Shown piece by piece: positions 33,102 through 52,711 of a stretch of 64,000 bases of DNA. Source of the DNA: a virus. The notes beneath the pieces are model-generated. The model was not told where the DNA came from, did not search any database, and saw nothing but the letters and a program-made list of their open reading frames with translations. The first letter of the stretch is position 1; every line of letters starts with the position of its first letter. The stretch lies in the IMG/VR virus record IMGVR_UViG_3300020166_000010; one strand, written 5' to 3'. The translations under genes were made by a program, and so were the position numbers.

Positions 33102-34370
33102 TTAGATTTTCAAGAAAATCTTTCTAGAGTCTGCATCGATTCTAGTAACCTGTACTGTAATATTATCTCCAGGTTTAATAGTTTCTAAATCTATAACATC
33201 TTCAATTTCTGAAATATGTAATAGTCCAGCAACTCCTTTTTCGATGTCTACGAAGATACCGTAGTCTTTTACTGCTCGAACTGTTCCAACAATTTCACTT
33301 GGTGTTTTGATTCTATCAGTAATACCATCCCATAAGTCAACAACTGGTTTTGCATCTAACTGTGTTAGGATAATCTTTTCGTTCGATACAACTTCTTTAA
33401 TCTTAAATGCGATATCATCTCCAGGTTTAATTTCCCTAGCTCTATGTGCTTTTAATAATTCAGGAGTTAGATCATTAACGTGAATCATTCCAGTTAAACA
33501 TTCATCAAACTCTACAAATACTCCGTATTTTGCAGAACCTGTAACTTTACCTGTAAGATCTTGTGTTAGATTTTCCTTCAGTGCTTCGATTTTAGAAGGA
33601 ATCATTGCTTTTAAATATTCTCTGTGAGATACTACAATAGTTCCTCTTTTTTCTGAGAAACTTACAGGAACAACATACATATTGCCTCCTACAATAGATT
33701 CAAAGTCTGCTAATTTGTTAATTCCAGCTAAAGAACCTGGCATAAAACATTCAACCCCCTGTACGGTTACAATATAACCTCCTCCTGGTATCATTTGAGA
33801 AACTGTACCCATATATCCGGTTGCACCGTCTTTAATAGATTCCATTATTTCCTTAACAACCGCTGATTTAATACCTGCACTGATAGATCCTAATACGAAT
33901 CCTCGACCTCCGCCCATTTGAAGAACTTGAATCTTAACCTCAGCATCTGGAACAAATAATCCCCTAACGCTAATTTCTTCTTTTAAGACATTAACATATA
34001 CATTTTCTCGATATCCGATATCAACCGCAACCCACTCTTCGTTTATACTATAAATAGTACCCGAATAGATTTCACCAACCTCAACTTTCATCTGAGCTGG
34101 TTTAGCCTCTTCATATCCGTTAAAAAGATCTAAAAGATCTTGTGCATACGGCTCATGAGAATATACGTTATAATTACCTGTGTTTTTAAGTCCTTTGTTT
34201 ATCTTTCTAGATCTTGAAGGACATGACGCTTGGTGAGCATCCCAGTCGAATTCTTCGAGTGGAACATTAGCATTTTCTAAGTATGCTAATTTGTCATTTT
34301 TTTTTGTTTCTTGAGCGACTGGTTCTTCTTTAGTTAGTCTTACTCTTTTTGTTTTAACGTCTGTAGACAT
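33102..34370 (-). CDS. rpsA: ribosomal protein bS1-like protein (about four S1 domains)
   Basis: PLEEFDWDA N-terminal segment; S1 repeats VDIGYR, GVECFMPGS, YGVFVEFDECLTGMIHVNDL, DYGIFVDIEKGVAGLLHISEI. Confidence 0.82.
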   Translation of the reverse strand: MSTDVKTKRVRLTKEEPVAQETKKNDKLAYLENANVPLEEFDWDAHQASCPSRSRKINKGLKNTGNYNVYSHEPYAQDLLDLFNGYEEAKPAQMKVEVGEIYSGTIYSINEEWVAVDIGYRENVYVNVLKEEISVRGLFVPDAEVKIQVLQMGGGRGFVLGSISAGIKSAVVKEIMESIKDGATGYMGTVSQMIPGGGYIVTVQGVECFMPGSLAGINKLADFESIVGGNMYVVPVSFSEKRGTIVVSHREYLKAMIPSKIEALKENLTQDLTGKVTGSAKYGVFVEFDECLTGMIHVNDLTPELLKAHRAREIKPGDDIAFKIKEVVSNEKIILTQLDAKPVVDLWDGITDRIKTPSEIVGTVRAVKDYGIFVDIEKGVAGLLHISEIEDVIDLETIKPGDNITVQVTRIDADSRKIFLKI

Positions 34371-34421
34371 TCTTTTTTTAATTTAAATTGTTAATAATAG
34401 TGAATAAATAATTTTATAGGT

Positions 34422-34429
34422 TATATATA
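34422..34429 (-). promoter_or_regulatory. late-type promoter motif TATATATA
   Basis: 51 nt upstream of the bS1-like ATG. Confidence 0.55.
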
Positions 34430-34435
34430 CTTTTT

Positions 34436-36286
34436 TTAAAATGAGAGTGGCATGAATCCTACCATAGGAATTGGACCACCTGGTGTTGCTATTCCACCTA
34501 AATATAAAAACTTTAATTTTAATAAGTGCTTTGCACATGCGCATGCAACTGCGGTTGCAACTAGAGTGGCAGCAACCGGAGTAGCCGGAGGAACTTCAAA
34601 AATCTTACCGCTGTTCCATGCTCTTCTTAAATCGTTTGCAAGTGATGTCTTGCTACCATAATATATTGGAGCAAACACCCCAAGTAACGGAGCGGTTATA
34701 TTACATGGTGGAATTGGCGGCCCACTTGTAAATGGCTGAGCTGCTGCTGATTGCCAGTATTTAATAATAGCACCTGCCATTATCTCATATGGATCCTCAC
34801 CATCTTCCTCTTGATCCTGCGAGTTTATCTCTTCCATGTAGTTGGCCCACTTCCTTTGAGTTTCCCACCATCTTTCTTGCTCTTTTTCATATAGTAAATC
34901 CTTTCCGCGTTTTCGCCATAATCGACCGGCTTGGCTAGTGTATGTGGCAACCGCTCCATCAATTGACGGAACGTACGTGAAGGCTTTAATTAAGCCTTGT
35001 TTTATTTCTTCTGGTATTTCTTCTGGCCTTTGCTTATGCTCTTCTTGAAAGACATATTGATTAATCTGATAATCCGCAGTAGACAGGGGCGGTATAATAA
35101 GTGTACTTGTTAAAGAATATTTATTACCTCCATCATTTATTACTTTATTTCTTTCTTCTTTTTCGGCATTTCTCCATGCTTTTTCTAAAGATTTTATTTT
35201 ATCGTATATCTTTCTAGAAAGACCCCTGTATCTGTATGGTATCTCTGTTCCATACTTTAGAAGCTCTACCCATAGCTTATATCCTGCTGAATTATCATTC
35301 CCTGTTAGAATTCTACTAACTAGAACATCTATTTTTTCTTCTTCAGTAAGATCTGGTATAGTATTTCTAATAGGCTTAGTAATATTCTCTGGATATCCTG
35401 CAGCGTCTCCTTGTAACTTTTCATCAATGCCACTTAGTTTCTCTAATACTCCACCATCACTTATAGTAATTGATTTAGTCTTATTTATTGTTTTGATTAA
35501 AGATTTACCGGACATATCTAGTATTTCTTTAAATGTATATGTATATTTACCAGGAACTGTGGGCACGTTGATTACAGCAAAGCCAGTGTTACCCCCAGCT
35601 CCACTACCTGAGCCTGATCCGCTGCCTGAACCCGATGATATCGAGCCAGATCCTACTGAACCTACTATTAGCGGAGATTGTTCAATTTCGTTTATTGTAT
35701 ATCTTATTTTAAAAGATTGTTCTGGATTAAATTTTTTAATTATAAATCGAACAACGTAATTATGGGATGGTGTATTTATATCTGAACTTGCTTTAGTAAC
35801 TACACTAAAATCTATATCTCCATCATTTGCGGTGTCATTCGGATCCTCCTCTGGATATGGGACCGGGCATGTTGATTCATATAGAGGATAGTAATTAAAC
35901 TTCTGAAGAGTGTCTGTATTCTCTGAAGTCCATTTTTCTATCTCGCACTGTGCGTCAAATGTTAGATCGGATTCTGGAAGTATTTCCGTAATAGACTGGT
36001 ACTGTGATAAAGTTTTTCTATCTTCAAGAGAGGTTTTATAATCTTCGAAAAGCTTTTTAAATGCCTTGTCAAATCCTTCCGCTAAAACTGGCTTTACACC
36101 AGCATTACTATGTGTATTTCCGAATGGTGTTTGTGCTGTTGATACTGCGGCAACATATTCATCTGCCAGAAACGAAGCAAAGTCTCCAATACCAGGAGCA
36201 TTAGGAGGTAATCCCATACTCTCTGCACTTCTTGCTGTTAGTTTTGCAGATACGTTATTAATAAATAAAGGCCATTTTGCCGGCAT
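34436..36286 (-). CDS. hypothetical protein, probably virion-associated (follows the spike gene)
   Basis: 616 aa; internal (SG)n linker; late motif upstream. Confidence 0.55.
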   Translation of the reverse strand: MPAKWPLFINNVSAKLTARSAESMGLPPNAPGIGDFASFLADEYVAAVSTAQTPFGNTHSNAGVKPVLAEGFDKAFKKLFEDYKTSLEDRKTLSQYQSITEILPESDLTFDAQCEIEKWTSENTDTLQKFNYYPLYESTCPVPYPEEDPNDTANDGDIDFSVVTKASSDINTPSHNYVVRFIIKKFNPEQSFKIRYTINEIEQSPLIVGSVGSGSISSGSGSGSGSGSGAGGNTGFAVINVPTVPGKYTYTFKEILDMSGKSLIKTINKTKSITISDGGVLEKLSGIDEKLQGDAAGYPENITKPIRNTIPDLTEEEKIDVLVSRILTGNDNSAGYKLWVELLKYGTEIPYRYRGLSRKIYDKIKSLEKAWRNAEKEERNKVINDGGNKYSLTSTLIIPPLSTADYQINQYVFQEEHKQRPEEIPEEIKQGLIKAFTYVPSIDGAVATYTSQAGRLWRKRGKDLLYEKEQERWWETQRKWANYMEEINSQDQEEDGEDPYEIMAGAIIKYWQSAAAQPFTSGPPIPPCNITAPLLGVFAPIYYGSKTSLANDLRRAWNSGKIFEVPPATPVAATLVATAVACACAKHLLKLKFLYLGGIATPGGPIPMVGFMPLSF

Positions 36287-36306
36287 GATTGTATTGTTTT
36301 ATAGAC

Positions 36307-36314
36307 TATATATC
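36307..36314 (-). promoter_or_regulatory. late-type promoter motif GATATATA
   Basis: Directly after the spike gene stop. Confidence 0.6.
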
Positions 36315-37037
36315 CTATTTACCAGTCTGTTGATAATCTACGTGCTTCGCTCTCAACGCGTCTACAAACATTGGTGTTGGAAACGCAGGTAGACCTGATG
36401 GACCGGTCCCTGTTGGATGCCAGTGTCTTTCATATTCATCAAGAAATTCATTTAACCATTTCTCTAAACTAACTCCACGAACAGCAGGCTCTGACTCATC
36501 AGCACCTTCTTCTCCCTTGTTTGATAAAAATATATCACCAGAATCTAGAAAGATTTTTTGGTCTGTTGATATTTTGATATACCCTTCCTCGTCGATTTGT
36601 ATAAGTGGTCGTTTTTTAGCGCCGCTTCCTCTTGTAATTACCAAACCATCTTTAGTTGATGAATATATTCTTATGTCTCTTTCGGCATCATATACTAAAC
36701 TAACAACATCATGTGCATTATCAGGATCTTGTTCTAAAACTTCTGATTTAAGATCTTTATTTTGGTTAATTTGAAACCAGTATTCAGGATGATATATGTT
36801 ACCATTGTCAAATCTAACCGCAACAATATCTCCAACTCTTGGAATTGAATGTGCTCCTGCATTATCTCTGTTCATTGGAGTTGCCCATGGAATTGATTCA
36901 TTTTCTAATAAATCAAACTTACCATAAACTTTAACTCGACATCTTCCTAAAAGAGAAGGATCTACATTATCAACCACCTCGCCTAGCCAGTGAGTTTCTC
37001 TAATATTATCTTTTTCTAGTTCCTTGTCTCTTGCCAT
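36315..37037 (-). CDS. baseplate central spike (gp5/VgrG OB-fold, no lysozyme domain)
   Basis: GEVVDNVDP..LGRCRVKVYG...IPWA...IPRVGDIVAVRFDNGNI..P; C-terminal HWH metal-tip motif. Confidence 0.85.
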   Translation of the reverse strand: MARDKELEKDNIRETHWLGEVVDNVDPSLLGRCRVKVYGKFDLLENESIPWATPMNRDNAGAHSIPRVGDIVAVRFDNGNIYHPEYWFQINQNKDLKSEVLEQDPDNAHDVVSLVYDAERDIRIYSSTKDGLVITRGSGAKKRPLIQIDEEGYIKISTDQKIFLDSGDIFLSNKGEEGADESEPAVRGVSLEKWLNEFLDEYERHWHPTGTGPSGLPAFPTPMFVDALRAKHVDYQQTGK

Positions 37038-38218
37038 TATTCGTGTATATTACCTAGAGATTTTGCAGCCGCTGAGTTTAGCGCATCTCCAATAGTCTGT
37101 CCTTGATCTACTAAACCATGTACGTTATCTGCAATAACGCTTTGTATATTATTTGCGTTTGCTGCAGGATTTGCGATGTTATCAACTCCTTTTACAAAAT
37201 CCTTATATAGATTATTAACAGCTGCATTAACTCGACCTACTGTCGCATCTTTAGCTTGCTGCTTTAATTCATTAACTTTTTGGATAGCTGTGTTTTTTAA
37301 ATCTCCAACTGCTCGATCAGCAAATGCTGTTGCTTTTTGAACAGCTTGATCTTTTAGCCAATCCCCTACACTATTAAGTTCTTTATTCTCCGAATCTGGC
37401 GATGGCGATAAATCATCAGTGTTGTAAACAGATTCTACAATACCATTTAATACCCTAGCTTCCATATCATATAATGCTTCATAGGTTATTGATATTTCTC
37501 CGGTTGCTACCTCTGGCGTTGCTTTTTGTAAATCTGCAAATATAGTTGTTCCAGATTTTAAATCAAATTCACAAAATTTAAGAGCAAACATAAAATAAGG
37601 TTTTCCACTAGTTCCTGAAATTCCGGAATTTGCATTATCTATACCTATTTTCGGTTTAAAATTATCTGGAAATCCTCCTAGATCAACTCCACTTAAAGTA
37701 GGTTTAGACATGTTTTTAATAGCCCTAACTTCAGTAACGTAAATATACATTCTGAATTTTCTTAAATTGGTTGGTAAAACCCACGTCCATTTTCTTTCAT
37801 CGAAAACAGCTTTTCTATATAAGTGCATTAAACCAGATATTGTCAGGTTAATAGACTCTAAAGTTCCTATAGTTATTACAGCATCATCTCCTCCAAAATA
37901 CGGGTTTAACGGATTATACTGTTGTATTTTTTCTAAACCAGATAAACTTTGCCAAAACCAAGGCATTTCATTATTAATAAGTTTTAAAGCTTTTTTAAAG
38001 TTTTGAAGTGCTTCTAATTTTTCTTTATAATACTCCGACGTTTCTCCTTCAGATGATAGTCTCTTTAAATAATCCTCAGCAGGGTCTGCTAATAGAGGCG
38101 AATTGGCAGCATCTGCAAAATCAAACAACATAAGAAACGACATATAAGTTGGATCTTGGTATTGTTGACTTGCTCTTTTACCTTTTCTAAAATCTGATAT
38201 TTTCTTGAAATCTGACAT
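37037..38218 (-). CDS. baseplate/tail-tube-like structural protein
   Basis: Between hub and spike genes; WFWQSLSGL tube-like segment. Confidence 0.5.
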   Translation of the reverse strand: MSDFKKISDFRKGKRASQQYQDPTYMSFLMLFDFADAANSPLLADPAEDYLKRLSSEGETSEYYKEKLEALQNFKKALKLINNEMPWFWQSLSGLEKIQQYNPLNPYFGGDDAVITIGTLESINLTISGLMHLYRKAVFDERKWTWVLPTNLRKFRMYIYVTEVRAIKNMSKPTLSGVDLGGFPDNFKPKIGIDNANSGISGTSGKPYFMFALKFCEFDLKSGTTIFADLQKATPEVATGEISITYEALYDMEARVLNGIVESVYNTDDLSPSPDSENKELNSVGDWLKDQAVQKATAFADRAVGDLKNTAIQKVNELKQQAKDATVGRVNAAVNNLYKDFVKGVDNIANPAANANNIQSVIADNVHGLVDQGQTIGDALNSAAAKSLGNIHE

Positions 38219-38222
38219 ATAG

Positions 38223-38230
38223 TATATATT
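38223..38230 (-). promoter_or_regulatory. late-type promoter motif AATATATA
   Basis: 4 nt before the ATG at 38218. Confidence 0.6.
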
Positions 38231-38248
38231 CTTATTAGTTTGTAGCTA

Positions 38249-39745
38249 TTAACCTTGTAAATTATTTAATCTACTTGGCCATTCTCTTCTTAAAAGAGTT
38301 AAGTGCTGTCTGATAGCCCCTCCCTTGTATGTGTATCTAATAGATCCTATAATATAAAATCCGCTTAAGAATTCATCTACTGCTTGTGCAGATCCGTTAG
38401 TTGGTAAATCAGGATCAGATTCTGGTTGTGCTTCAAAACCAAGTTCTTCTTTTGTGGTTTTTACCTGTGTATCAACTAAAACCTGCGAGTCTGTTTCGTG
38501 AAAAATAACAACAGGTATTTTTTGATATCTATATAATGCAGGATTCCATGTAGATAGCTCAATCTCAAGAGTCATTTTATCTAGTTCCTGTAGATTTTGC
38601 TGATTATGTATACCTGCAAAGTTGTAATTTAAGTGCGTATTCGAAGTCTCAGGGTCACTGTTCCTTCTACCTACATATTTATACTTTATTTCTTGTTTGT
38701 ATCTCTCCTCATCCCTACGTCCTTTCATGGGCTCGGCAATGTCCTTCATTTCATTTGAAGATAAAGGTTCAATATCGAAGTTTACTAATCCTTCATCAGA
38801 GTCGTTTTCAAAGTATTGCAATACTCTTTTGTAGCCATTTCTTTTTGCAATAGTACCTGCATTATTTTTAAGAGAATATTTATCAATATGTAAATTAGAT
38901 CCTTCAAGTTCTGACTTTGTGCTAAGTATTAAAGTGCTTGCCATCTCATTCGTTGTATTGCTAGCGTCCGGTCCTTTGGTATCGTTCATATCATCGTTCA
39001 TTGCTGCAACAGCATCTTCAAAATCATCCTCTGCATTTATCATTATATTTAAGTCGACATATGTCAGATAATAAAAAGGATCGATACAGTATGTTTGAAA
39101 AGAATCATCATTAACATATGAGTGTTTTACTAGATTTGTAATAGTATCTATAATAGGCTCGTATGTTGTTACACAATTCATTTCATCGTCAGTTGTATCA
39201 ACGTTAGAGGCAAATCCTATTTTTAAATCAGTAGCTATTTTTTCTAAGTGATCTATTGTTGTTCCTTTACCGTAAGATTTACACTGCTCTGCATTTATCC
39301 CTGGAATTTTCATCTCGCCGGCAAATGAATACTTAGCACCACCTGACCCTCTAGATATTACACTAACAGGTGGAGATTCTACGTTTGTAATGTCAAAATC
39401 TATTCTAATATCTTTGTAATCGTCTTTCGGTCTTGCTGATAGTCTTACTGTTATTACATCTCCGTCTCTTGGAAAAGAGTCTACATTAAATCTAGCATCA
39501 TTGTCAATTACAGTAAGTTCTATTGTTGGAACAAATTCGTCTAATGAAATCTCAAAAGACTTTATATCTGCTCGATTGAATTGATACCCATTAATAATAA
39601 TTAATGGAAATTCAACCCCAAGATCTCTAGTTATGTTCGCATCACCTGGATTATCACCCTCTTGCTCGCCAAACGAGTCAAAATTATGTTCATCTAGTTT
39701 TATTGTTGGTTCTAACCTTGTTAAAATTTTACCTTCTAATGCCAT
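38249..39745 (-). CDS. baseplate hub protein (T4 gp27-like)
   Basis: C-terminal LSGFYIIGSIRY...QHLTLLRREW hub-type motif; position between LysM and spike genes. Confidence 0.65.
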   Translation of the reverse strand: MALEGKILTRLEPTIKLDEHNFDSFGEQEGDNPGDANITRDLGVEFPLIIINGYQFNRADIKSFEISLDEFVPTIELTVIDNDARFNVDSFPRDGDVITVRLSARPKDDYKDIRIDFDITNVESPPVSVISRGSGGAKYSFAGEMKIPGINAEQCKSYGKGTTIDHLEKIATDLKIGFASNVDTTDDEMNCVTTYEPIIDTITNLVKHSYVNDDSFQTYCIDPFYYLTYVDLNIMINAEDDFEDAVAAMNDDMNDTKGPDASNTTNEMASTLILSTKSELEGSNLHIDKYSLKNNAGTIAKRNGYKRVLQYFENDSDEGLVNFDIEPLSSNEMKDIAEPMKGRRDEERYKQEIKYKYVGRRNSDPETSNTHLNYNFAGIHNQQNLQELDKMTLEIELSTWNPALYRYQKIPVVIFHETDSQVLVDTQVKTTKEELGFEAQPESDPDLPTNGSAQAVDEFLSGFYIIGSIRYTYKGGAIRQHLTLLRREWPSRLNNLQG

Positions 39746-39746
39746 T

Positions 39747-40238
39747 CTATAATATTATCACGTCTCCGTTAATGTCGATATTCTTGTCTCCGTCTTTTAG
39801 TATATTTGGCGGAACTATTTGTTTTGATCCATTTTGCTTTTGCGCAGCTTTTTTCTTTAGATACTCTGCTCTCTTAGCGTCCTTAACTGTTAATCTCTTA
39901 GAGTCAACAAACTGATCCCTTATTGATTTATCTTTTTGGCTTCCTATTCCTTTAATTGTTTTCCAGGCTTTTAGTATTGCGTCTTTATCTGGTATATTTA
40001 AAACATCGCCTTCAGTTATTGAAAAAGGATTAGATATATTATTAAATTTTAAAATAAGATCAGAGTAATCTGCAAGCCCGTAATACTTGATTGATATCAT
40101 ATCAATTCGGCATGTCTCATCTGCTGAAACTTCATGAACTGCCCTGATTTCAGCATTTTTAGGAAACAATATAGTTGGTTCGGTTATTCTTAACTTACCA
40201 TCCTTTATTTTTTTATTATTTATAGATTTTAAGTTCAT
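39747..40238 (-). CDS. baseplate LysM-domain protein (T4 gp53-like)
   Basis: RIDMISIKYYG....DLILKFNNISNPFSITEGDVLNIP. Confidence 0.8.
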   Translation of the reverse strand: MNLKSINNKKIKDGKLRITEPTILFPKNAEIRAVHEVSADETCRIDMISIKYYGLADYSDLILKFNNISNPFSITEGDVLNIPDKDAILKAWKTIKGIGSQKDKSIRDQFVDSKRLTVKDAKRAEYLKKKAAQKQNGSKQIVPPNILKDGDKNIDINGDVIIL

Positions 40239-40239
40239 A

Positions 40240-44310: not shown

Positions 44311-44488
44311 ATTTTAAAGCTCCTATGTGATCCTCTACGAATTCTTCAAGATAGTTTATTGATTCACTAGGGCCTATCACCGCGTCAGGACTCGTTACGT
44401 ACATTTTATAAAAGAAAGCGTCACCTAACTCGATTCTTTTTCTTTTTAAATCTTCTAATTCTGGTAGATATCTTTTATTGAATCCCAT
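44309..44488 (-). CDS. small hypothetical protein missed by the ORF track (59 aa, MGFNKRYLPELEDL...)
   Basis: Manual translation; fills the gap and overlaps the dCMP deaminase stop. Confidence 0.6.
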   Translation of the reverse strand: MGFNKRYLPELEDLKRKRIELGDAFFYKMYVTSPDAVIGPSESINYLEEFVEDHIGALK

Positions 44489-44990
44489 TCCATGTATTTA
44501 CTTGTTTAACTTCAATTCCTGCGGTTTCTAAGAGCTCAACTCCGCTCATGTCTCTGTATTCTTCTGTATAATATACCATTTTAATTCCAGCTTGTATAAT
44601 TAACTTAGCACATCCAAAACATGGACATGTTGTAGTGTATAGATCAGCACCAACACAACTCATAGTCGATTTTGCAACTTTCATAATTGCATTTGATTCT
44701 GCGTGTAAAACAGCAGGTTTTGTTATTGCACCATGTTTGTGGCAAACACCATTGTTACATTCATATCCCTGTTCTGCTAAATCAACAGCGAGGTCTGGGT
44801 TTTCGTAATATCTAGTATCTGTTTCTTCACATGAATTATCAAACCCATGAGGCATTCCATTATAACCGAATGAAATTACTTGATGATCTTTTACGATGAC
44901 ACACCCTACTTTACGTCTTTCTGCGTAACTAAGTTGAGCAAACTGATATGCTGTTTGCATGTATACTAATTCTATTGGTATTCTTGGCAT
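44475..44990 (-). CDS. dCMP deaminase
   Basis: KVGCVIV, GYNGMPHG, HAESNAI, PCFGCAKLIIQAGI. Confidence 0.92.
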   Translation of the reverse strand: MPRIPIELVYMQTAYQFAQLSYAERRKVGCVIVKDHQVISFGYNGMPHGFDNSCEETDTRYYENPDLAVDLAEQGYECNNGVCHKHGAITKPAVLHAESNAIMKVAKSTMSCVGADLYTTTCPCFGCAKLIIQAGIKMVYYTEEYRDMSGVELLETAGIEVKQVNTWNGIQ

Positions 44991-45036: not shown

Positions 45037-45065
45037 AAAAAAAGCCCGGATTTCTCCAGGCTTTT
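45037..45065 (-). terminator. intrinsic terminator
   Basis: Minus strand AAAAGCCTGGA-GAAA-TCCGGGCTTTTTTT. Confidence 0.85.
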
Positions 45066-45086
45066 AGTTTTATATTTAAGAATGAA

Positions 45087-46274
45087 TTACTCTACATCAG
45101 TAGCGTCGTCTGCTAATTCAGATTCTTTCATTTCGTTAATTTTAGTAGTATATGATTCGATCATTGAATTACAAGCTGCTTCATATGCTTCAGTTGAATA
45201 ATCTTCTTTCATTTCTTTAAGAGCTCCAGCTGCTAATGCCGCAACTAATGCTGCGTTTTCAGCCATGTAAGATTCTACAGTGTGAGAGTCATGCGCGTCT
45301 TCTTCCCATACTTTAGCTTCGTTTTTACAAGATTCATAAACTTCTTTTAACATTGCTGCTACTGCGATAGCAGCTGCAGGATTTTCGTTTACTTCTTCAG
45401 TCTCTTCAGATTCTTTAACTCCTAAAAAGTCTGCTGCTGCTGCTTTTAATTCGTCATAAGTATATTTACCAGTTAATGCGTCATCAAGAATTGTTCCTCC
45501 TTTTTTACCAATCGCGTATAATGATACGTGATCAAATCCTAACCAAGGTCCAACGAATTCGTCTGATGCTTTTAAACCTAAATCTGTAGATAATGTCCAT
45601 GATAAAGATCTTCTTCCTAAGAATTGGTCATTATAACCTAATTTACCAGCTTTAATATAACCTGATGCGTTTACAGCTTCTTCAATTGCTTCAGCTTCTT
45701 CGACTTTAAAAGTTTCTCCGTCGAATTCAAATTCATCTTCACCAGCTTCTTTAGCTTTTCTAACTGCGTCTCCGAAAGCATTACCTTCTTCAACCTCTTC
45801 AGTTTCTTCAACTTCTTCAGTTTCTTCAACCTCTTCAGATTCTTCAACTTTAAAAGTTTCTCCGTCAAATTCAAATTCAGTTTCACCAGCTTCTTTAGCT
45901 TTTCTAACTGCATCTCCGAAAGCATTACCTTCTTCAATTGCTTTAACTTTAACAGTAAATGTCTCTTCTGATTCTTCGATGTATTCTGCTAAGTCAGCAT
46001 CGTCCCATCCGTATTGAGAATCTGCTAATACTGTTTCAAGATCTTCTCTTTTACCTGTTAGTTCAACTTCTGGAAATCCTGAAGGACCGTCCTGGTCGAT
46101 AACTTCCATAGAAACTTTGTTTTTCTTAAGTAATTTTGCAAGACCTTTTGATTTTGGGTCAACTGCATCCATCACAACAGAAGCTTCCTGAACTTCTAAA
46201 TTGTTAATTTCTTCTTGATTGGCACTAGCTTGCTTTTCCGCAACGTACTGCTCAAACGATTTTAATTTAGCCAT
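45087..46274 (-). CDS. very acidic, modular head/internal protein with capsid-targeting-like N-terminus
   Basis: MAKLKSFEQYVAE start; many (I/V)xE sites; duplicated 32 aa module. Confidence 0.6.
   Translation of the reverse strand: MAKLKSFEQYVAEKQASANQEEINNLEVQEASVVMDAVDPKSKGLAKLLKKNKVSMEVIDQDGPSGFPEVELTGKREDLETVLADSQYGWDDADLAEYIEESEETFTVKVKAIEEGNAFGDAVRKAKEAGETEFEFDGETFKVEESEEVEETEEVEETEEVEEGNAFGDAVRKAKEAGEDEFEFDGETFKVEEAEAIEEAVNASGYIKAGKLGYNDQFLGRRSLSWTLSTDLGLKASDEFVGPWLGFDHVSLYAIGKKGGTILDDALTGKYTYDELKAAAADFLGVKESEETEEVNENPAAAIAVAAMLKEVYESCKNEAKVWEEDAHDSHTVESYMAENAALVAALAAGALKEMKEDYSTEAYEAACNSMIESYTTKINEMKESELADDATDVE
45696..45937. repeat. two ~98 bp direct repeats (45696-45793, 45840-45937) separated by short EEVEET-coding tandem units
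   Basis: Encode EEGNAFGDAVRKAKEAGExEFEFDGETFKVEE twice. Confidence 0.9.
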
Positions 46275-46309
46275 AATATAATTTATTTTATTGTTTTTTA
46301 TTATTAATC

Positions 46310-46317
46310 TATATATC
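46310..46317 (-). promoter_or_regulatory. late-type promoter motif GATATATA
   Basis: Upstream of 46274. Confidence 0.6.
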
Positions 46318-46323
46318 TATGAA

Positions 46324-47355
46324 TTAAATGATAGTTTCTCTACCATCAATAACGTCCTGGTAATTAACTCTACCCTTAGATCTTTTAATTTGATCTTCGT
46401 TTTCTTTTAAGTTTATTTTATAAATAGGTCTAATATATTCTTCATTTAAATACGTCTTGAATTCCTGTGGCAGCTTTTCTCCATAAAAATCCTCATATAC
46501 TGCAACATAAACTCTAGCCATTTTATCTGCTGCCATTCCTGAAGCTGAATTGATTTCTGCAACCCAACAATCGCCAGATTTATCTACCATTAAATCAATT
46601 GACCAAAGACCAAGCTTTAATTTTTCTCTAACAGTTTTGCAGATATCAGTTATTTTATCCATAAAATCTAATTTACTTGTGTCTTGATCGACATACGTAA
46701 ATTCAGTTTTTTCACCTGATTTTTTATCTTTAATTTCATTTTCAGTTGCTGATACTCTTTCATGAACTAATACCACAGTATCATTTACTAATAAAATTCT
46801 AAACTCAGTATCTAAGTCTTTAGCCTCTGAATAGTTTTGAAATTCCCCTTTACTTTTTTCTAAGTCTTCATAAGTATCAAAAATCTCAATACCCATTCCG
46901 GAGTGTCCATCATCTGGTTTTGCAATTACAGGAAATTCTAAATCCTTCGCATCTTCTTTTTTATAAACAGCCTTTGGTATAAAATCTGAATCTTGAAACA
47001 TTTTATAAAAGTCAGTTTTATTACCGCTAATCTTCATAGCTTCTGGTAAATTATACATATCATCTTCTGATATACCGTACTTCTCTAAAAAATCTAAACC
47101 TTCTTTTGAGTTTCCACCATAATAAATAAGAGGTAGTTTTGAATTAACTTCCAAGTCTTTTCCATAATCTCCTTTAGCATAAAAGGCATTATATAGTTCT
47201 TTTAAACAAATTTCGTTTACGTCGCCGTAAATACTATTGTTTGTGCCTGTAAGGCCTTTTACCTCTTCTCCTGCTAATATAAAATTAACTTTTTTTAGAT
47301 AATCTTTATTAGACTTTTCAAGTAGAAATTTCTCAAATAGTTTTACTTTTTTCAT
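46324..47355 (-). CDS. ATP-grasp (RimK-like) ligase with capsid-targeting-like N-terminus
   Basis: FPVIAKPDDGHSGMGI, EFRILLV, SIDLM...VAEINSASGM; start MKKVKLFEKFLLE; late motif at 47378-47385. Confidence 0.8.
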   Translation of the reverse strand: MKKVKLFEKFLLEKSNKDYLKKVNFILAGEEVKGLTGTNNSIYGDVNEICLKELYNAFYAKGDYGKDLEVNSKLPLIYYGGNSKEGLDFLEKYGISEDDMYNLPEAMKISGNKTDFYKMFQDSDFIPKAVYKKEDAKDLEFPVIAKPDDGHSGMGIEIFDTYEDLEKSKGEFQNYSEAKDLDTEFRILLVNDTVVLVHERVSATENEIKDKKSGEKTEFTYVDQDTSKLDFMDKITDICKTVREKLKLGLWSIDLMVDKSGDCWVAEINSASGMAADKMARVYVAVYEDFYGEKLPQEFKTYLNEEYIRPIYKINLKENEDQIKRSKGRVNYQDVIDGRETII

Positions 47356-47369
47356 GATAGCTTTTTTAT

Positions 47370-47717
47370 TTATACCCTATATATCTTGATCTTAAGATCT
47401 GATGTTCCTGGTAATATTCTATGAATAACTCCCGTTGGTATTTTTATATCTACGCCGATTATGAGTGGTGTTGGTAATTCATTGTCATATTGAAATCTCC
47501 AGTCGGAATCTTCTAATACTTCAATAACCCTATCTTCAGGGTCGCTGTGCCATTTATATAAGTGTTCTGGATAGCTTGGATCGAATGTTCTTATAATATA
47601 ACCATCATACTGCTCTTCAACGAAAGGCTTAGTTTGATCATTTATGTTAGATATCAATTCTTCCATTGACATGCTACCACATTTACAAGATTTACATTTA
47701 CAATCTTTATCTACCAT
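47370..47717 (-). CDS. small cupin-fold protein with Cys-rich N-terminus
   Basis: WHSDPEDR...WRFQYDNELP...IPTGVIHRI; ATG at 47717 overlapping the upstream stop preferred. Confidence 0.65.
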   Translation of the reverse strand: MVDKDCKCKSCKCGSMSMEELISNINDQTKPFVEEQYDGYIIRTFDPSYPEHLYKWHSDPEDRVIEVLEDSDWRFQYDNELPTPLIIGVDIKIPTGVIHRILPGTSDLKIKIYRV

Positions 47718-48250
47718 GGCTGATCTGATTTTAAACCTAATTGTTTTCCAAAAAGAGTTGGTCCATAACATGCCCAGAATCCAGCTTTCATTGGATCCAT
47801 TTTTTCTGCTTTATCGCAACCATGTCTCGCCCAGAAACTAGCAGCTTTTCCAGGATTATCATTTTTAACTGTAAGGTTTGGATCTCCCCATTCTACCTTT
47901 TTTGCTAATACATTCCCTTCTTTGTCTTTTCTACCTCCGTCTCTATATACTATAAACTTCTTACCTCCACCTCGTTCTGGCGAATCTAATTTAACTTTAA
48001 TTGTCTTTCCTCCGCGTGGAGTATAAAGAGCAGGTTTACCTACATCTAGATTTTTAGCCATCCAGCCTGACGGTCCTTTTAGAATAATGTTATTTTTATC
48101 CCAGTATTCTTTAACCTCTTCGAATAGTTTAGAATAGGCATCACTACCTAATCTAAAGAATGAATTAGTTAAATCTAAATCTTCTGCAATATGTGCCTTT
48201 AATTCTGGTGAAACCTTTTCCCAAGCTTCAAATGTTTTTATAAATTTCAT
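47711..48250 (-). CDS. conserved-type phage protein with capsid-targeting-like N-terminus
   Basis: MKFIKTFEAW start (48250); C-terminal KKVEWGDP...SFWARHGC...AGFWAC domain. Confidence 0.7.
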   Translation of the reverse strand: MKFIKTFEAWEKVSPELKAHIAEDLDLTNSFFRLGSDAYSKLFEEVKEYWDKNNIILKGPSGWMAKNLDVGKPALYTPRGGKTIKVKLDSPERGGGKKFIVYRDGGRKDKEGNVLAKKVEWGDPNLTVKNDNPGKAASFWARHGCDKAEKMDPMKAGFWACYGPTLFGKQLGLKSDQPW

Positions 48251-48254
48251 ATTT

Positions 48255-48560
48255 CTATTTTTCCATGTTATCAATTAAATCCTGTCGGTCTAATTGTTTA
48301 TAAACTTCTTTACGAACCTTTTCCATTTTATCAGCATACTTTGGGTCGTCATTACGATTAAACACAACCTGCTGGGTTAGTGAACCACTGATCTTCTTAA
48401 CATCACCCTTACGAGTCTTAATTAACCATGCTGCTAAATCTTTAATCCCTAAATCTTTAAACCTACCCTCAGCCGGAGGTGCATCTGACTTGTTAAAGTC
48501 TGGAGCTCCTGCTGGTTTTTTCTCTGTAATGAATTGTTCGAATAACTTTATAAATTTCAT
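48255..48560 (-). CDS. hypothetical protein with capsid-targeting-like N-terminus
   Basis: MKFIKLFEQFITE start at 48560, 1 nt after the upstream stop. Confidence 0.7.
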   Translation of the reverse strand: MKFIKLFEQFITEKKPAGAPDFNKSDAPPAEGRFKDLGIKDLAAWLIKTRKGDVKKISGSLTQQVVFNRNDDPKYADKMEKVRKEVYKQLDRQDLIDNMEK

Positions 48561-48561
48561 G

Positions 48562-49026
48562 TTAATCTTCTTTTGATTTGAATGGTAACTTTTTATCGTG
48601 ACCTCCGTCTCTAACTTCTTTAGCAACGTCGGAATCAGCACCGCCCCAAGTTCCTTTTCCTTTTTCTAAGAATGCATTTATTCTGGCATAGCCCCATCCT
48701 TCTTGTGTCATACCTGGATGGTGTCCACCGTTCCAAGCGTCCATTCCACGTCTCATTATGATTCTCAATAAAGGTACAGGTACTCCACTTTCTTTTGATT
48801 TGTTCTTGATTCCAGTTTCTACAGCCTTACCTTTAAGAGGTCCTCTGTCTCCTTTAGCCTTTTCTGCTTCATTAACAGATTCTCCTAAAACTGGCGTATT
48901 ATCATGACCACATTTGTGGCATATGTAAGGATCTTCACCGCCTTCGTCTAATCTCCAAGACCAGTCACACCCTTCGCAAGATACTTTATTTGCTGAAAAC
49001 TCTTCAAACAATTTAACGTATTTCAT
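48562..49026 (-). CDS. Zn-ribbon plus conserved helical domain protein with capsid-targeting-like N-terminus
   Basis: MKYVKLFEEF; CxxC...CxxC; RRGMDAW..GH.PG....WGYARINAF. Confidence 0.7.
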   Translation of the reverse strand: MKYVKLFEEFSANKVSCEGCDWSWRLDEGGEDPYICHKCGHDNTPVLGESVNEAEKAKGDRGPLKGKAVETGIKNKSKESGVPVPLLRIIMRRGMDAWNGGHHPGMTQEGWGYARINAFLEKGKGTWGGADSDVAKEVRDGGHDKKLPFKSKED

Positions 49027-49051
49027 TTTCTTTTAATCTTTGTTTATACTC

Positions 49052-49059
49052 TATATATC
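49052..49059 (-). promoter_or_regulatory. late-type promoter motif GATATATA
   Basis: Overlaps the uvsE stop; heads the capsid-targeted cluster. Confidence 0.62.
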
Positions 49060-49987
49060 AGGATAAAACTAGATCATTTAGATATTCTTTACGGTATTTG
49101 ATTAAGGCTAGCTCTTTAGCTTTGACTTCTAGTTCAATATCAATATCCATGTCATACGTTTCTATTTTTTCGTATATGTAATCAGCATGTGCTCTCAATA
49201 TAACAGATTCATCTTCATGTAGCTTTTTTGAAGAAGAGTAGTGACATAATTGGCGAATACCTTTAGGCCATGTTTTTGCACATAATTCAAGTGCATCTTT
49301 TTCTGACATTGGATCTTCATAGCACCTGTGATGGTGGTAGTCGAACGTGATAGGTATATTAGTCTTTTCGTAAATCTCATAAAGATCTTCTACGCCGTAT
49401 TGCGCAGGCTTATCGTCATTTTCTATAACCAATCGAGCCTGTGCAGATTTTGATAAACGTTTAAAGTTATCAACGAACCTTTGCTTTGCGGCATCCTTGT
49501 CGCCGTATGAGCCACCTACGTGAATGTTCATAGAATACGTATGGTTTTGTGGTAATCCCATTGAATCTAGTATAAGCGCTGATTGATCTAGTTCTCTGAT
49601 CGCAGCATCTACTGTTTTAGGAGTTGGGCTTGGTAAAACACAAAACTGACCTGGGTGGAAACCTACGCGCTGATTGTATTTTTGAACAAGAGTACCTGCG
49701 CCTTTGAGTAGATTAGATATTGTTTGCCAATTAGGTAAATCAGTTAATTCATACTCACTCATCCAAGGGAACATAGAGCTACTCATACGGTAAACATTAA
49801 TGCCTTGTTTGTGATTCCACTTTATAATCTCAATAAGATCTCGAACATTTGCTTCAGCTAATTCTCCAGCGTATTTAATACCTTTAGCGGTGAATGTTCG
49901 TTTGATCATTGATCGACCGATCTTGATGTCATGATCTTTTTGTAGTGTTAAATTAATGCAACAATATCCGTAGTTTGCTTTTCCCAT
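49058..49987 (-). CDS. uvsE: UV-damage endonuclease (UvsE/UvdE)
   Basis: GYCCIN, YRMSSSMFPW, FHPGQF, IHVGGSYG, RLVIENDD, FDYHHH, HADYI, EVKAKELA. Confidence 0.92.
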   Translation of the reverse strand: MGKANYGYCCINLTLQKDHDIKIGRSMIKRTFTAKGIKYAGELAEANVRDLIEIIKWNHKQGINVYRMSSSMFPWMSEYELTDLPNWQTISNLLKGAGTLVQKYNQRVGFHPGQFCVLPSPTPKTVDAAIRELDQSALILDSMGLPQNHTYSMNIHVGGSYGDKDAAKQRFVDNFKRLSKSAQARLVIENDDKPAQYGVEDLYEIYEKTNIPITFDYHHHRCYEDPMSEKDALELCAKTWPKGIRQLCHYSSSKKLHEDESVILRAHADYIYEKIETYDMDIDIELEVKAKELALIKYRKEYLNDLVLS

Positions 49988-49996
49988 GTTTGTTAT

Positions 49997-50233
49997 TTAT
50001 ATGTTATATAATGATTCTTTGATTTTGTTTATAAATCTTTCAGCGTCACACGCTTCGTCTAATGTAAGCACGTCAAGATCTTGAAATAATAGGCCAGTGC
50101 CTGTGTCTACAAATATGATGTCACCAATAATTTCAGCCTTAGCAACCTCATGAATTGTCATATCCTCTAGGTATATTATTTTAGAGGTGGTTAGAATTCT
50201 ATCCATTCTTTGTTGGGCATTCATCATTTGCAT
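49997..50233 (-). CDS. hypothetical protein (early cassette)
   Basis: ATG at 50233 downstream of early promoter copy B. Confidence 0.6.
   Translation of the reverse strand: MQMMNAQQRMDRILTTSKIIYLEDMTIHEVAKAEIIGDIIFVDTGTGLLFQDLDVLTLDEACDAERFINKIKESLYNI
50004..50030 (-). promoter_or_regulatory. middle-type promoter variant AAAC-N17-ATATAA upstream of uvsE
   Basis: Same motif with a 17 nt spacer. Confidence 0.45.
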
Positions 50234-50260
50234 ACGCAGTGTTTGTTCTTTATTATATAG

Positions 50261-50309
50261 TAAATATAACACTTTTTATTGGAACAAAAAAACTTTTGAG
50301 CATTTATTT
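50261..50309 (-). promoter_or_regulatory. early/host-type promoter repeat, copy B
   Basis: 43/49 identical to 32974-33022. Confidence 0.7.
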
Positions 50310-50323
50310 CCACAGAAAGTCCT

Positions 50324-50342
50324 ATTTATAATGATTCCAAAT
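50324..50342. promoter_or_regulatory. imperfect copy of the Fur/PerR-like palindrome (ATTTATAATGATTCCAAAT)
   Basis: 17/19 identical to 33027-33045, in the same context. Confidence 0.5.
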
Positions 50343-50347
50343 AAGAC

Positions 50348-50369
50348 AAAAAAAGGGACCGAAGTCCCT
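50348..50369 (-). terminator. intrinsic terminator with cUUCGg tetraloop
   Basis: Minus strand AGGGAC-TTCG-GTCCCTTTTTTT. Confidence 0.88.
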
Positions 50370-50392
50370 GATTGCTCGACTGGCAGTCAAGC

Positions 50393-50737
50393 TTATTTCC
50401 AAAATAATTGTATTCCTATAATGCAGCATGCTAATAATAAACATATTGCAGTTTTTGTTGTAATTCCCTCGTCTAATAAATAATATGTTAGAGCGGTAAA
50501 GGTTATGATTCCACAAGTAAATCCAATAAATCTACCAGGCCATATTTGTCCGTCATAATATTCTGCTATAAATTTAGTTGCAAGTATAAACATGTAGCTA
50601 ATCACAGTACCTCCAATTATCGAAATGGTTAATGGATTCTTTTTAAACCATGGCCAGACAAATTGTCCGTTAGTTTGGATCCATATCATAGATTGTCCTA
50701 GTGCAAATAATAAAACACCTGCTAATAAGCCTCTCAA
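50393..50737 (-). CDS. small four-helix membrane protein (SMR/DMT-like)
   Basis: 114 aa with four hydrophobic segments. Confidence 0.6.
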   Translation of the reverse strand: MRGLLAGVLLFALGQSMIWIQTNGQFVWPWFKKNPLTISIIGGTVISYMFILATKFIAEYYDGQIWPGRFIGFTCGIITFTALTYYLLDEGITTKTAICLLLACCIIGIQLFWK

Positions 50738-51372
50738 AACAATTCACCGGTTGTGGTTAATAAATGCGAGATAAAACTATGTCTGTGGTGCTCATTTGGT
50801 CCTGATTCTTTAATAGCGTTGATATGTTGTTTTGTTCCATATCCTTTATTTGAATTCCAGCCATACTGTATAAACTCTTCTTTTTCGCTTAATTCTTTCA
50901 TAAGAGAATCTCTGCCTGTTTTAGCTAAAATTGAAGCAGCTGCAATTGAAGTATATTTGTTATCTCCACCTATGATTGTTTCAAATGGAATTCCATGATA
51001 CCCGTGGAATTGATCGCCATCTACTAAAATAAAATTAAACTTATGAGCATGCTCATCAAGATTAGATAGACACTTATACATTCCTTGCATAGTCGCTCTG
51101 AGTATATTTGTGTTTTCAATATCCTCAACGTTGATGTGTTCAACATGAAATGCAATAGCATTACTCAATACAATATCGAGTGCGGTTTTTCTGTCTTTTT
51201 CATTTAGAAGTTTTGAGTCTTTAATTAATGGATGAGTAAATCCATGTGGCATGATACACGCTGCAACAGTGACTGGACCTGCTAGTGCTCCGCGACCTGC
51301 TTCATCTATTCCAACTTCTACAATATTTCTATCTTCGTTGAGAGATCCTTTAAGTAATATGTGTTTAGACAT
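50734..51372 (-). CDS. rnhB: ribonuclease HII
   Basis: GIDEAGRGALAGPV, DSKLL, VDG, GDNKYTSIAAASILAK, NKGYGT; ATG at 51372 preferred because the longer start spans a promoter. Confidence 0.92.
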   Translation of the reverse strand: MSKHILLKGSLNEDRNIVEVGIDEAGRGALAGPVTVAACIMPHGFTHPLIKDSKLLNEKDRKTALDIVLSNAIAFHVEHINVEDIENTNILRATMQGMYKCLSNLDEHAHKFNFILVDGDQFHGYHGIPFETIIGGDNKYTSIAAASILAKTGRDSLMKELSEKEEFIQYGWNSNKGYGTKQHINAIKESGPNEHHRHSFISHLLTTTGELF

Positions 51373-51392
51373 TTCTATTTGATATTTAAGTA

Positions 51393-51418
51393 TTATACCT
51401 AAATATTGCAAATAGTTT
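51393..51418 (-). promoter_or_regulatory. middle-type promoter AAAC-N16-GTATAAT
   Basis: Exact 16 nt spacer. Confidence 0.68.
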
Positions 51419-51420
51419 AC

Positions 51421-52137
51421 TTATTCATTGTCTAATTTCCATTTGTCATATCTTTCAACAACATCAATTAAGATCTTAGCTCTTACGATATCTTTTTGTG
51501 TAAATTGGTGGTGACCTATTCCTTTGATACCTTTCATTAGTTCGGTAAAAGGCTCAATCCCTGCTGAGTTCTTTGAAATATCATACTGGCTCACATCACC
51601 TGTTACGATCACCTTAGAGGTCTTTCCCATTCTGGTAACAAATAACATAAGTTGTTTAAACGTGGCGTTCTGTGCCTCATCAAGTATCATGAGTGAGTCA
51701 TCATAAGTATCTCCTCTCATAAACGCTAAAGGTCTAAATTGAATAATTTCAGATTGAACTAATTGTTCGGTTAATACTGGTCCAACTATTTTAGTTAAGT
51801 TAGAAATATATGATTGCATATATGGATCTATCTTTTCTCCGATATCTCCAGGAAGAAACCCTAGTTTCTCACCAGCCTCTTGAATAGGCTTACATAAAAT
51901 AATGTTTTTGATTTTGTTATCTGCAAATAATTTTAATGCAGCGTAACATGCTGTAAATGTTTTTGAAGTTCCGGCAGGTCCAGAGCAAAATGTAATTTCA
52001 TTCTCTAATATGTTTTGTAAATAAGCTTTTTGAGATTGTCTTAATTGTGCTTTTATATCTGCTGGTTTAATAATGACTTTACGTCTGTTAATTCTGTTAT
52101 TTTCGTTTCCGGTTTTATTATCAGAATTCTTCTTCAT
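51421..52137 (-). CDS. phoH: PhoH-like ATPase
   Basis: GPAGTSKT, EKLGFLPG, LAFMRGDT, ILDEAQN, TGDVSQYD, DIVR. Confidence 0.92.
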   Translation of the reverse strand: MKKNSDNKTGNENNRINRRKVIIKPADIKAQLRQSQKAYLQNILENEITFCSGPAGTSKTFTACYAALKLFADNKIKNIILCKPIQEAGEKLGFLPGDIGEKIDPYMQSYISNLTKIVGPVLTEQLVQSEIIQFRPLAFMRGDTYDDSLMILDEAQNATFKQLMLFVTRMGKTSKVIVTGDVSQYDISKNSAGIEPFTELMKGIKGIGHHQFTQKDIVRAKILIDVVERYDKWKLDNE

Positions 52138-52155
52138 ATATTTATTATGCTATGT

Positions 52156-52413
52156 TTAATCCCCTGCCATTGTAACAAGTTCTTTTAATTTCATTAATTT
52201 ATCACACTTCTCATACTCTTCTAGTCCTTCAAAATACTCTACTAAAATATTAATAAACTCACTTCTCTGGCCAATACCATGGGGTATCTCGATTATATCG
52301 TTTCCTTCTTTGAAAACAACGAATCGATTCACGGTCTTTGTGAAGTTTCTTGTAATGGTGTAGTACGAAGATCTCATTAAAGAGTCTCTGTCTTCTCCTA
52401 GAATATCTTTCAT
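52156..52413 (-). CDS. UVR-like 'EEYEKC' motif protein 1
   Basis: C-terminal YFEGLEEYEKCDKL; ATG at 52413 after a late motif at 52450-52457. Confidence 0.65.
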   Translation of the reverse strand: MKDILGEDRDSLMRSSYYTITRNFTKTVNRFVVFKEGNDIIEIPHGIGQRSEFINILVEYFEGLEEYEKCDKLMKLKELVTMAGD

Positions 52414-52522
52414 TTGATTGTATTTATTTTTATGTCTTTCAACATGTAGTATATATTTAGTAGTACCCGGAGATACTACCCATACCATGAAAAAAAATAT
52501 AATGATATTATATTATCAAATG

Positions 52523-52711
52523 TTATTCTGGATTGTTAAATTTTTGCTCGACGTATTTTGCTTTTTGTAATTTAACACGTTTTGCTGCTGAAGGTTTGGT
52601 ATAATCTTTACCTTCGCGAAGGGCCTTAGTTTGGCCTGTTTTATTTACTTTATATTTAAATGACTTTAAAGCCTTTTCTATATTTCCTTTTTCTACTTTG
52701 ATTATTAGCAT
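52523..52711 (-). CDS. rpsU: ribosomal protein bS21
   Basis: MLIIKVEKGNIEKALKSFKYK...LR...YTKPS..KR...QKAKY; Bacteroidota-type bS21. Confidence 0.88.
   Translation of the reverse strand: MLIIKVEKGNIEKALKSFKYKVNKTGQTKALREGKDYTKPSAAKRVKLQKAKYVEQKFNNPE

Follow-up and report, generated by a model that had tools for sequence, protein, structure and literature searches.

Phage S1 and bS21 genes beside a tagged, virus-only ATP-grasp ligase in a predicted marine jumbo phage

We analysed a stretch of viral DNA of 64,000 nucleotides, the IMG/VR record IMGVR_UViG_3300020166_000010 (hereafter the window), and in particular three of its genes: a bS1-like gene, a gene for an ATP-grasp ligase and a bS21 gene. 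A preliminary description had tentatively joined the three into a kit that remodels the messenger RNA (mRNA)-loading platform of the host 30S subunit, with the ligase as a RimK-like enzyme for which bS6 was a hypothetical substrate. On balance we favour, if only slightly, another reading, in which the window holds two unrelated things, namely supplements for translation and a packaged enzyme, and not one kit. The three open reading frames (ORFs) lie where that description had placed them, all on the minus strand:

33102..34370, minus strand: bS1-like gene, 422 amino acids, with profile matches and four OB (S1) domains
46324..47355, minus strand: ATP-grasp ligase gene, 343 amino acids, of a virus-only family; tag in residues 1-14 (MKKVKLFEKFLLEK), core from about residue 21
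52523..52711, minus strand: bS21 gene, 62 amino acids, of Bacteroidia type, passing curated cut-offs

The window is AT-rich (G+C content about 33%) and has almost all of its genes on the minus strand; no transfer RNA genes were found within it. Its close relatives are IMG/VR and marine (TARA) contigs of 63-176 kilobases (kb), which CheckV rates as 23-61% complete and which therefore point to a phage genome of about 300 kb. The S1-like protein has distant relatives among the huge phages (462-735 kb) reported by Al-Shayeb et al. and among Lak phages, with homologues of 30-34% identity in LR756500-LR756504, LR745206 and the Lak phages. When bS21 was scanned against species genomes, a single match was obtained, in a Bacteroidetes metagenome-assembled genome (48% identity), which fixes the phylum and not the host. 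We predict a marine jumbo phage of about 300 kb with a Bacteroidota host. Genome-wide counts given below are based on related fragments and five complete huge-phage records.

The S1-like and bS21 genes

The identification of a bS1-like gene was borne out. The protein consists of tandem S1/OB domains that are collinear with domains D1-D4 of bS1, and it ends at D4. It matches NF004952 (profile positions 30-371 of 580; E-value (E) 5.9e-46), E. coli S1 (residues 14-344; E 2.7e-36) and Flavobacterium johnsoniae bS1 (residues 47-369; E 1.2e-25). An AlphaFold model built with 20 phage homologues has a disordered N-terminal extension (residues 1-75), a helix (residues 76-89) and four OB domains. Across the phage S1 family F41, W43 and A76 are invariant and Q77 nearly so, with an FxW in the extension and a conserved Y-A-Q near the helix. 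The N-terminal 110 amino acids gave no match in the PDB. We do not claim that the helix with which host bS1 contacts uS8 is retained: in a HMMER alignment with the family profile, residues 12-40 of F. johnsoniae bS1 fall just before D1, and the phage FDWDAH motif is not aligned to the FNWHNF helix of the host protein. A predicted complex of F. johnsoniae uS2 with residues 60-170 of the phage protein reached a score of 0.60, compared with 0.01 for the best control (runs agreeing in at least 82% of contacts; predicted local distance difference test (pLDDT) of the partner at least 73). This is a weak score that we do not use as evidence; a pass at or below 0.60 is more often wrong than right unless the contact was likely beforehand, and with solved complexes available it may reflect likeness only.

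The bS21 gene scored above the curated cut-offs of both PF01165 (39.6 bits; cut-off 27) and TIGR00030 (40.2 bits; cut-off 28.95), which confirms its earlier assignment. Among solved structures the closest are 9i5v and 7jil, the latter an F. johnsoniae ribosome to whose bS21 it aligns over residues 1-56. Tyr53 and Val54 align to Tyr54 and Ile55 of F. johnsoniae, and the signature tyrosine is present in all 24 phage bS21 copies that were read. The C-terminus is weakly basic and reads KAKYVEQKFNNPE. Tyr54 is specific to Bacteroidia, stacks on A1534 and turns the anti-Shine-Dalgarno (anti-SD) tail into a pocket formed by bS21, bS18 and bS6 (PMC7797042; PMC13000457), in agreement with the preliminary description, which had these three proteins hold the anti-SD in Bacteroidia.

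The S1-like and bS21 genes sit in different surroundings. The former is flanked by baseplate genes, namely a gp5-like hub (36315-37037), a gp25-like wedge (39747-40238) and a gp6-like wedge (27740-29560). It has its own late-type motif, and the hairpin past its stop codon has a U-rich tail; the gene is therefore a self-contained unit. The bS21 start codon overlaps the stop of an upstream ORF of 84 amino acids, and the gene order DnaJ, small ORF, bS21, small ORF, PhoH, RNase HII is kept in marine relatives. Three small proteins near bS21 and DnaJ (52156-52488, 52705-52959 and 53929-54198) share a helix near the C-terminus that contains a (G)LEEYEKC motif. The signals and genes that define these units, together with the motif ahead of the ATP-grasp gene, are as follows:

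34413..34430, minus strand: late-type motif GTATATATAACCTATAAA, 42-50 nucleotides upstream of the S1 start
33051..33077, minus strand: terminator-like hairpin after S1, followed by UUUCUUAUUU (-16.6 kcal/mol, z-score -4.4)
47369..47384, minus strand: late-type motif ATATATAGGGTATAAA, 13 nucleotides upstream of the ATP-grasp start
53920..53927, minus strand: nearest late-type motif upstream of bS21, AAGATATATAATAC, 3 nucleotides before the ATG of a 57-amino acid ORF
54222..54229, minus strand: early-type TATATTTA box before an 89-amino acid ORF, further upstream in the bS21 unit
52952..53743, minus strand: DnaJ-like co-chaperone gene, belonging to the bS21 unit
50354..50369, minus strand: intrinsic-terminator-like hairpin and T run that would end the bS21-containing unit

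All three genes had been thought to stand behind a late motif. We judge the motif itself to be real. Its core is (A/G)ATATATA(A/G), frequently followed by TATAAA, and ATATATANNNTATAAA occurs in five exact minus-strand copies against 1.1 expected. This sequence lies 42-50 nucleotides before the S1 start and 13-21 nucleotides before the ATP-grasp start, and it is kept at both genes in relatives. Ahead of S1 the ATATATA core persists in relatives down to about 46-60% protein identity, along with a conserved A-rich leader, and GATATATA is kept upstream of ATP-grasp homologues. For bS21 the claim does not hold: no late motif was found directly upstream of it, where the stretch varies in relatives at synonymous sites, as coding sequence does. 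The motif at 53920-53927 is 1.2 kb away, ahead of the 57-amino acid ORF and DnaJ, and serves the unit of DnaJ, the 84-amino acid ORF and bS21 at operon level only. Note that the core is found within 60 nucleotides upstream of about 20 gene starts in the window, including those of tail and baseplate genes, a collagen-like gene, UvdE and an amidoligase. The motif could plausibly serve a T4-like phage as its late promoter; being this common, it does not link S1, bS21 and the ATP-grasp gene to each other. A sigma-70 promoter scan of the window was uninformative (81 sites against 87.5 expected).

Gene leaders in the window are A-rich and lack SD sequences, which agrees with initiation in Bacteroidia. 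An SD-like 4-mer at -18 to -4 precedes just one of 58 gene starts, and the A content upstream of starts is 45-74%, compared with a background of 38%. At several genes (53916, 29931 and 55226) the late motif ends 3-8 nucleotides before the ATG, and some mRNAs may therefore be nearly leaderless. Huge phages that carry S1 also lack SD sequences (PMC7162821).

The ATP-grasp ligase and its tagged neighbours

The preliminary description had called the product of 46324-47355 a RimK-like ATP-grasp protein. The second part of that name stands, and the first is apt only in a generic sense. The structural model is confident (pLDDT 93) and shares with RimK (PDB 5ZCT, 4IWX, 5ZK6) a three-domain ATP-grasp fold (Z 16.7, root-mean-square deviation 3.3 over 245 residues), and its family conserves Lys, Arg, Asp and Glu-x-Asn at the catalytic positions. 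Unlike RimK, with which it has 14% identity, it has a tag at the N-terminus and, at the C-terminus, a helical extension of about 50 amino acids. Its score against the RimK profile TIGR00768 was 21.3 bits, far below the cut-off of 143.4, whereas true Bacteroidia RimK proteins score 241-279 bits. Pfam matches were Dala_Dala_lig_C (1.3e-6), ATP-grasp_3 (2.3e-5) and RimK (3.3e-5). A sequence search of the PDB returned nothing below E 0.1, and RimK was not among the 20 matches listed.

An exhaustive search defined the family as 221 clusters at 50% identity, and in the ESM Atlas its nearest clusters are viral throughout. It is claimed by no single Pfam family: among 58 aligned members, matches were to Ddl_C (42), YheCD (33), ATPgrasp_ST (32), R2K_2 (25), RimK (16), TTL (14) and R2K_3 (9). 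We compared the family profile (A1) by hhalign with RimK and D-Ala-D-Ala ligase (Ddl) profile sets drawn from Bacteroidia genomes. The E-values were 4.4e-9 for A1-RimK, 7.6e-11 for A1-Ddl and 2.7e-11 for RimK-Ddl; the distance between the family and RimK is therefore on a par with that between RimK and Ddl. As far as sequence comparison can tell, the protein groups with non-RimK ligases, and it belongs to a phage-specific family of predicted carboxylate-amine ligases. P0112, a predicted protein of 236 amino acids on a 1.1-kb ENA contig, shares 98% identity with the initial third of the ATP-grasp protein but has SecA matches among its precomputed Pfam results, and is probably the product of a chimeric gene call.

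The ATP-grasp gene is one of five consecutive and otherwise unrelated genes (45087-49026) whose products begin with a T4-like tag of the capsid-targeting type. The other four are:

45087..46274, minus strand: acidic protein of 395 amino acids, tag MAKLKSFEQYVAEK; own late-type motif and an internal repeat
47711..48250, minus strand: protein of 179 amino acids, tag MKFIKTFEAWEK; internal ATG at 48250
48255..48560, minus strand: protein of 101 amino acids, tag MKFIKLFEQFITEK; internal ATG at 48560; a homologue is fused ahead of ATP-grasp in relatives
48562..49026, minus strand: DUF5824 protein of 154 amino acids, tag MKYVKLFEEFSANK; behind a late-type motif

The tags of the 179- and 101-amino acid proteins are visible only when their ORFs are read from the internal ATGs (48250 and 48560). 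The 395-amino acid protein is very acidic, with EEVEET runs and a direct internal repeat, FGDAVRKAKEAGE-x-EFEFDGETFKVEE, present twice; it matches no family and may be a co-packaged internal protein or a DNA mimic.

The tag recurs across the ATP-grasp family. A strict tag motif occurs in the first 30 residues of 25 of 58 family representatives, against an expectation of about 1.4%, and structural alignments of the ligase to RimK and LysX start at residue 21, past the tag. In the fusions P0033, P0035 and P0059 the tag is on the partner, a homologue of the 101-amino acid protein, and the ligase's own tag is gone. In this set of relatives, which also includes P0114, the fused forms have inserts of 0, about 50 or about 130 amino acids, and one form of 680 amino acids has two ATP-grasps in tandem with a tag-like sequence ahead of each. 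The homologue in the 462-kb phage LR756500 begins MKFIKPYEEF. Furthermore, a gp21-type prohead protease (PF03420) scores over its cut-off in the related contigs G005 and G006. In T4, internal proteins and the packaged enzyme Alt carry a capsid-targeting sequence of 10 amino acids that is trimmed by gp21 (PMC3012670, PMC10229621). From its sequence features, the ATP-grasp protein is most likely an enzyme that would be packaged in the head and ejected. That the whole family, from 300-kb marine phages to the 462-kb huge phage, is delivered from the capsid by a T4-like tag is possible, if rather doubtful.

Alternative readings and the relation between the three genes

Several observations weigh against a view of the window as translation supplements plus a packaged enzyme. 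The S1-like protein falls below every bS1 equivalog cut-off (best 156.9 bits against 524) and is missing D5-D6, whereas full bS1 has six domains in both E. coli and Bacteroidia. On the ligase side, RimK and ArgX/LysX are the top structural matches (Z 16.7-16.1), followed by PurK (15.6) and by ITPK and Ddl (15.2). With RimK and LysX/ArgX top by fold, a protein C-terminus would be a reasonable acceptor, as judged from the model. The T4 capsid-targeting sequence is MKTYQEFIAE and is removed at L/I-x-E; here the tag ends LLE, VAE and ITE fit L/I/V-x-E in three of five cases, and AWE-K and SAN-K do not do so cleanly. The prohead protease is seen only in related fragments, at about 50% S1 identity, and not in the window. 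Finally, the ATP-grasp gene is only about 5 kb from bS21, both here and in marine relatives.

With four domains and scores below the cut-offs, the S1-like protein may act off the ribosome, either chaperoning RNA or assisting a phage enzyme as its cofactor, much as host S1 does for Q-beta replicase and T4 RegB. The long disordered N-terminal extension favours such a role, as does the fact that F. johnsoniae bS1 is no closer to the phage protein than E. coli S1 is, and Al-Shayeb et al. left open whether phage S1 works on or off the ribosome (PMC7162821). Against it stand the conserved helix ahead of D1, with A76 and Q77 invariant or nearly so, and the co-occurrence of the gene with bS21. In E. 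coli S1, moreover, D1-D2 bind the ribosome and D3-D4 bind mRNA, so that the phage protein has retained the minimal set for function on the ribosome. We therefore consider an off-ribosome role unlikely.

A comparably small probability attaches to the idea that the ATP-grasp protein ligates a small molecule or glycan, for example an amino acid onto a sugar acid or nucleotide derivative, in glycosylation or nucleotide metabolism. In marine relatives the gene comes directly after GT4 and GT25/OGFOD2-like genes. Distant homologues lie beside CTP_transf_like genes (three of five contexts) and AlaDh_PNT, Pribosyltran or PGA_cap genes, and the ATPgrasp_ST family matched by 32 of the 58 members is described as 'sugar-transfer associated'. 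The window also has collagen-like genes accompanied by oxygenases and glycosyltransferases. However, the neighbours vary by context and no conserved partner of the ATP-grasp gene was found; its 395-amino acid neighbour resembles neither the 422-amino acid protein nor the AlaDh_PNT protein that follow distant homologues. In the window the gene has been relocated into the cluster of tagged proteins, the glycosyltransferase neighbours in L001 have no tag, and a head-loading tag suits an ejected enzyme more than a cytoplasmic pathway enzyme.

The kit of the preliminary description would have the ATP-grasp protein, as a RimK-like enzyme, extend host bS6 and, together with phage S1 and S21, remodel the 30S platform into phage-specialised ribosomes. 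Beyond the top structural ranks of RimK and LysX/ArgX, it can draw on a match to PHROG 2599 (8.9e-12), which is named after S6 modification. Those ranks amount to a tie, because the lead in Z over PurK, ITPK and Ddl is about 1 and differences under about 1 count as ties, and the RimK cut-off, Pfam and hhalign results given above all speak against RimK membership. The bS6 link fares no better. The acceptor of E. coli RimK is a bS6 C-terminus ending in Glu-Glu, whereas a Glu-Glu end is absent from all 20 Bacteroidia bS6 proteins compared, of which a single one has a terminal Glu and most finish in Ala, Ser, Lys or Asn. Moreover, a true RimK-family gene is already present in 32 of 61 Bacteroidia genomes. 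RimK is documented to extend the RpsF C-terminus (PMC10092738), and truncation of the bS6 C-terminal helix in F. johnsoniae releases the anti-SD (PMC13000457), so modification of bS6 could matter. A head-loading tag, however, implies delivery at injection and not alongside late S1.

Co-occurrence across related phages, which had been proposed as a check, holds mostly for S1 with bS21 and fails for the ATP-grasp gene, which is inherited independently of bS21. S1 and bS21 are found together in four of five related fragments and in four of five complete huge-phage genomes. Four relatives (G002-G004 and G006) have S1 and bS21 without ATP-grasp, and the G002 and G003 contigs span the whole S1-to-S21 interval. 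Likewise, the complete genomes LR756502, LR756504, LR756501 and LR745206 have S1 and bS21 and no full-length ATP-grasp family member. Conversely, G005 and G068-G070 (the latter three 77-87% complete) combine S1 with an ATP-grasp homologue and lack bS21, as does the complete genome LR756500. All three genes are present in G072 and in the window's clade, as the kit would predict. Given the failed RimK membership, the tag, the bS6 ends and the independent inheritance, we regard a three-gene platform kit as very improbable; what survives of the platform interpretation is S1 and S21 as phage ribosomal proteins of a known kind.

On the reading that we favour, with translation supplements and a packaged enzyme as separate systems, the phage would make its own truncated bS1 (D1-D4) and a Bacteroidia-type bS21. 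Because it retains the tyrosine of the anti-SD pocket, phage bS21 would keep the host 30S subunit replete and 'SD-blind', and the additional S1 would contribute the factor by which A-rich, SD-less leaders are loaded. Phage messages without SD sequences, late structural ones in particular, would thereby gain initiation capacity. S1 would be expressed as a self-contained late unit inside the baseplate module, with bS21 carried along by chaperone and housekeeping genes (DnaJ, PhoH, RNase HII) in a unit with early-type as well as late-type signals. The ATP-grasp protein would be made late alongside the four similarly tagged proteins, loaded into the prohead via its tag and trimmed at a protease-type L-x-E site. 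It would then enter the next host together with the ejected DNA and there join an amino acid to a target.

Neighbouring genes and comparison with known systems

Further genes and repeats surround these systems. Auxiliary genes for dCMP deaminase, the UV endonuclease UvdE, RNase HII and PhoH are interspersed at 44475-44990, 49058-49987 and 50734-52137. Roughly 1 kb downstream of S1, and behind a late-type motif of its own, lies the gene for an Amidoligase_2 protein (PF12224; 430 amino acids, 30795-32087), which adds a second carboxylate-amine ligase to the region. At 55498-63935, two collagen-repeat proteins (824 and 808 amino acids) adjoin a 2OG-Fe(II) oxygenase, a GT2 and a DUF6445 protein, and in marine relatives a GT25/OGFOD2-like gene is added to this group; the neighbours suggest a collagen-like fibre that is hydroxylated and glycosylated. 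An element of about 75 nucleotides is repeated at 32986-33050 and 50273-50350 (72% identity overall, with long identical runs). Both copies directly follow a terminator hairpin and end in GTGTTATATTTA, and so contain the early-type TATATTTA box; the GTG-start ORFs called within them (85 and 91 amino acids) are probably not genes.

Phage-encoded bS21, and S1 in huge phages, have been described before (Mizuno et al. 2019, PMC6375957; Al-Shayeb et al. 2020, PMC7162821; Chen et al. 2022, PMC9723584). S1 and S21 have thus been familiar as phage genes since 2019-2020, as the preliminary description recognised for bS21, and their presence here is not new. The window resembles the huge-phage cases in combining bS21 with an S1-like gene in a large phage that is predicted to infect Bacteroidota and has SD-less genes. 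It differs in belonging to a marine lineage of about 300 kb and in a bS21 without an N-terminal extension. In addition, bS21 lies in a DnaJ-PhoH unit here, compared with the capsid region in Chen et al., who do not mention S1, ATP-grasp, RimK, bS6 or DnaJ (PMC9723584). The phage proteins share with those of F. johnsoniae (PDB 7JIL, 9ZCD; PMC7797042, PMC13000457) the signature tyrosine and weakly basic C-terminus of bS21 and the D1-D4 domains of S1, and phage S1 differs from host bS1 in its lack of D5-D6, its longer N-terminal extension and its unaligned FDWDAH motif.

The tagged proteins are like T4 internal proteins and Alt in having a short N-terminal tag, Met-Lys...Phe-Glu-x-Phe...Glu, that is common to unrelated clustered proteins, with a gp21-type protease in related contigs and late-type promoters ahead of tagged genes. 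Unlike T4, the cargo would be an ATP-grasp ligase instead of an ADP-ribosyltransferase or nuclease inhibitor, and the host is predicted to be a member of the Bacteroidota. Passages of Burroughs et al. 2015 (PMC4431377) and Iyer et al. 2021 (PMC7824862) predict that R2K-clade and other phage ATP-grasp peptide ligases modify host proteins. The family described here resembles the R2K clade in its R2K_2 and R2K_3 matches, its sporadic occurrence in phages and its predicted protein-modifying role in phage-host conflict, and differs in being claimed by no single Pfam family. Within the passages of those two papers that deal with 'capsid' or 'ATP-grasp', no head-loading tag is described.

What the window adds to the known phage ribosomal proteins is a clean Bacteroidia-type S1/S21 pair, with the signature tyrosine retained, S1 cut to D1-D4 and a conserved late motif ahead of it. 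The pair fits recent work in F. johnsoniae, in which bS1 requires bS21 for loading SD-less messages, and so provides a concrete hypothesis that is testable in vitro. Separating the ATP-grasp gene from the kit stops a RimK/bS6 annotation from spreading by name alone. Its reading as a packaged enzyme extends the predictions that R2K-type ligases modify host proteins (PMC4431377, PMC7824862), and, with a head-loading tag across the family, these ligases may represent a new class of phage enzymes that are ejected. If this is true, the family would be the first ejected 'amino-acid-ligase effector' of phages, and its target could be a translation component, which would loosely tie the ligase to S1 and S21.

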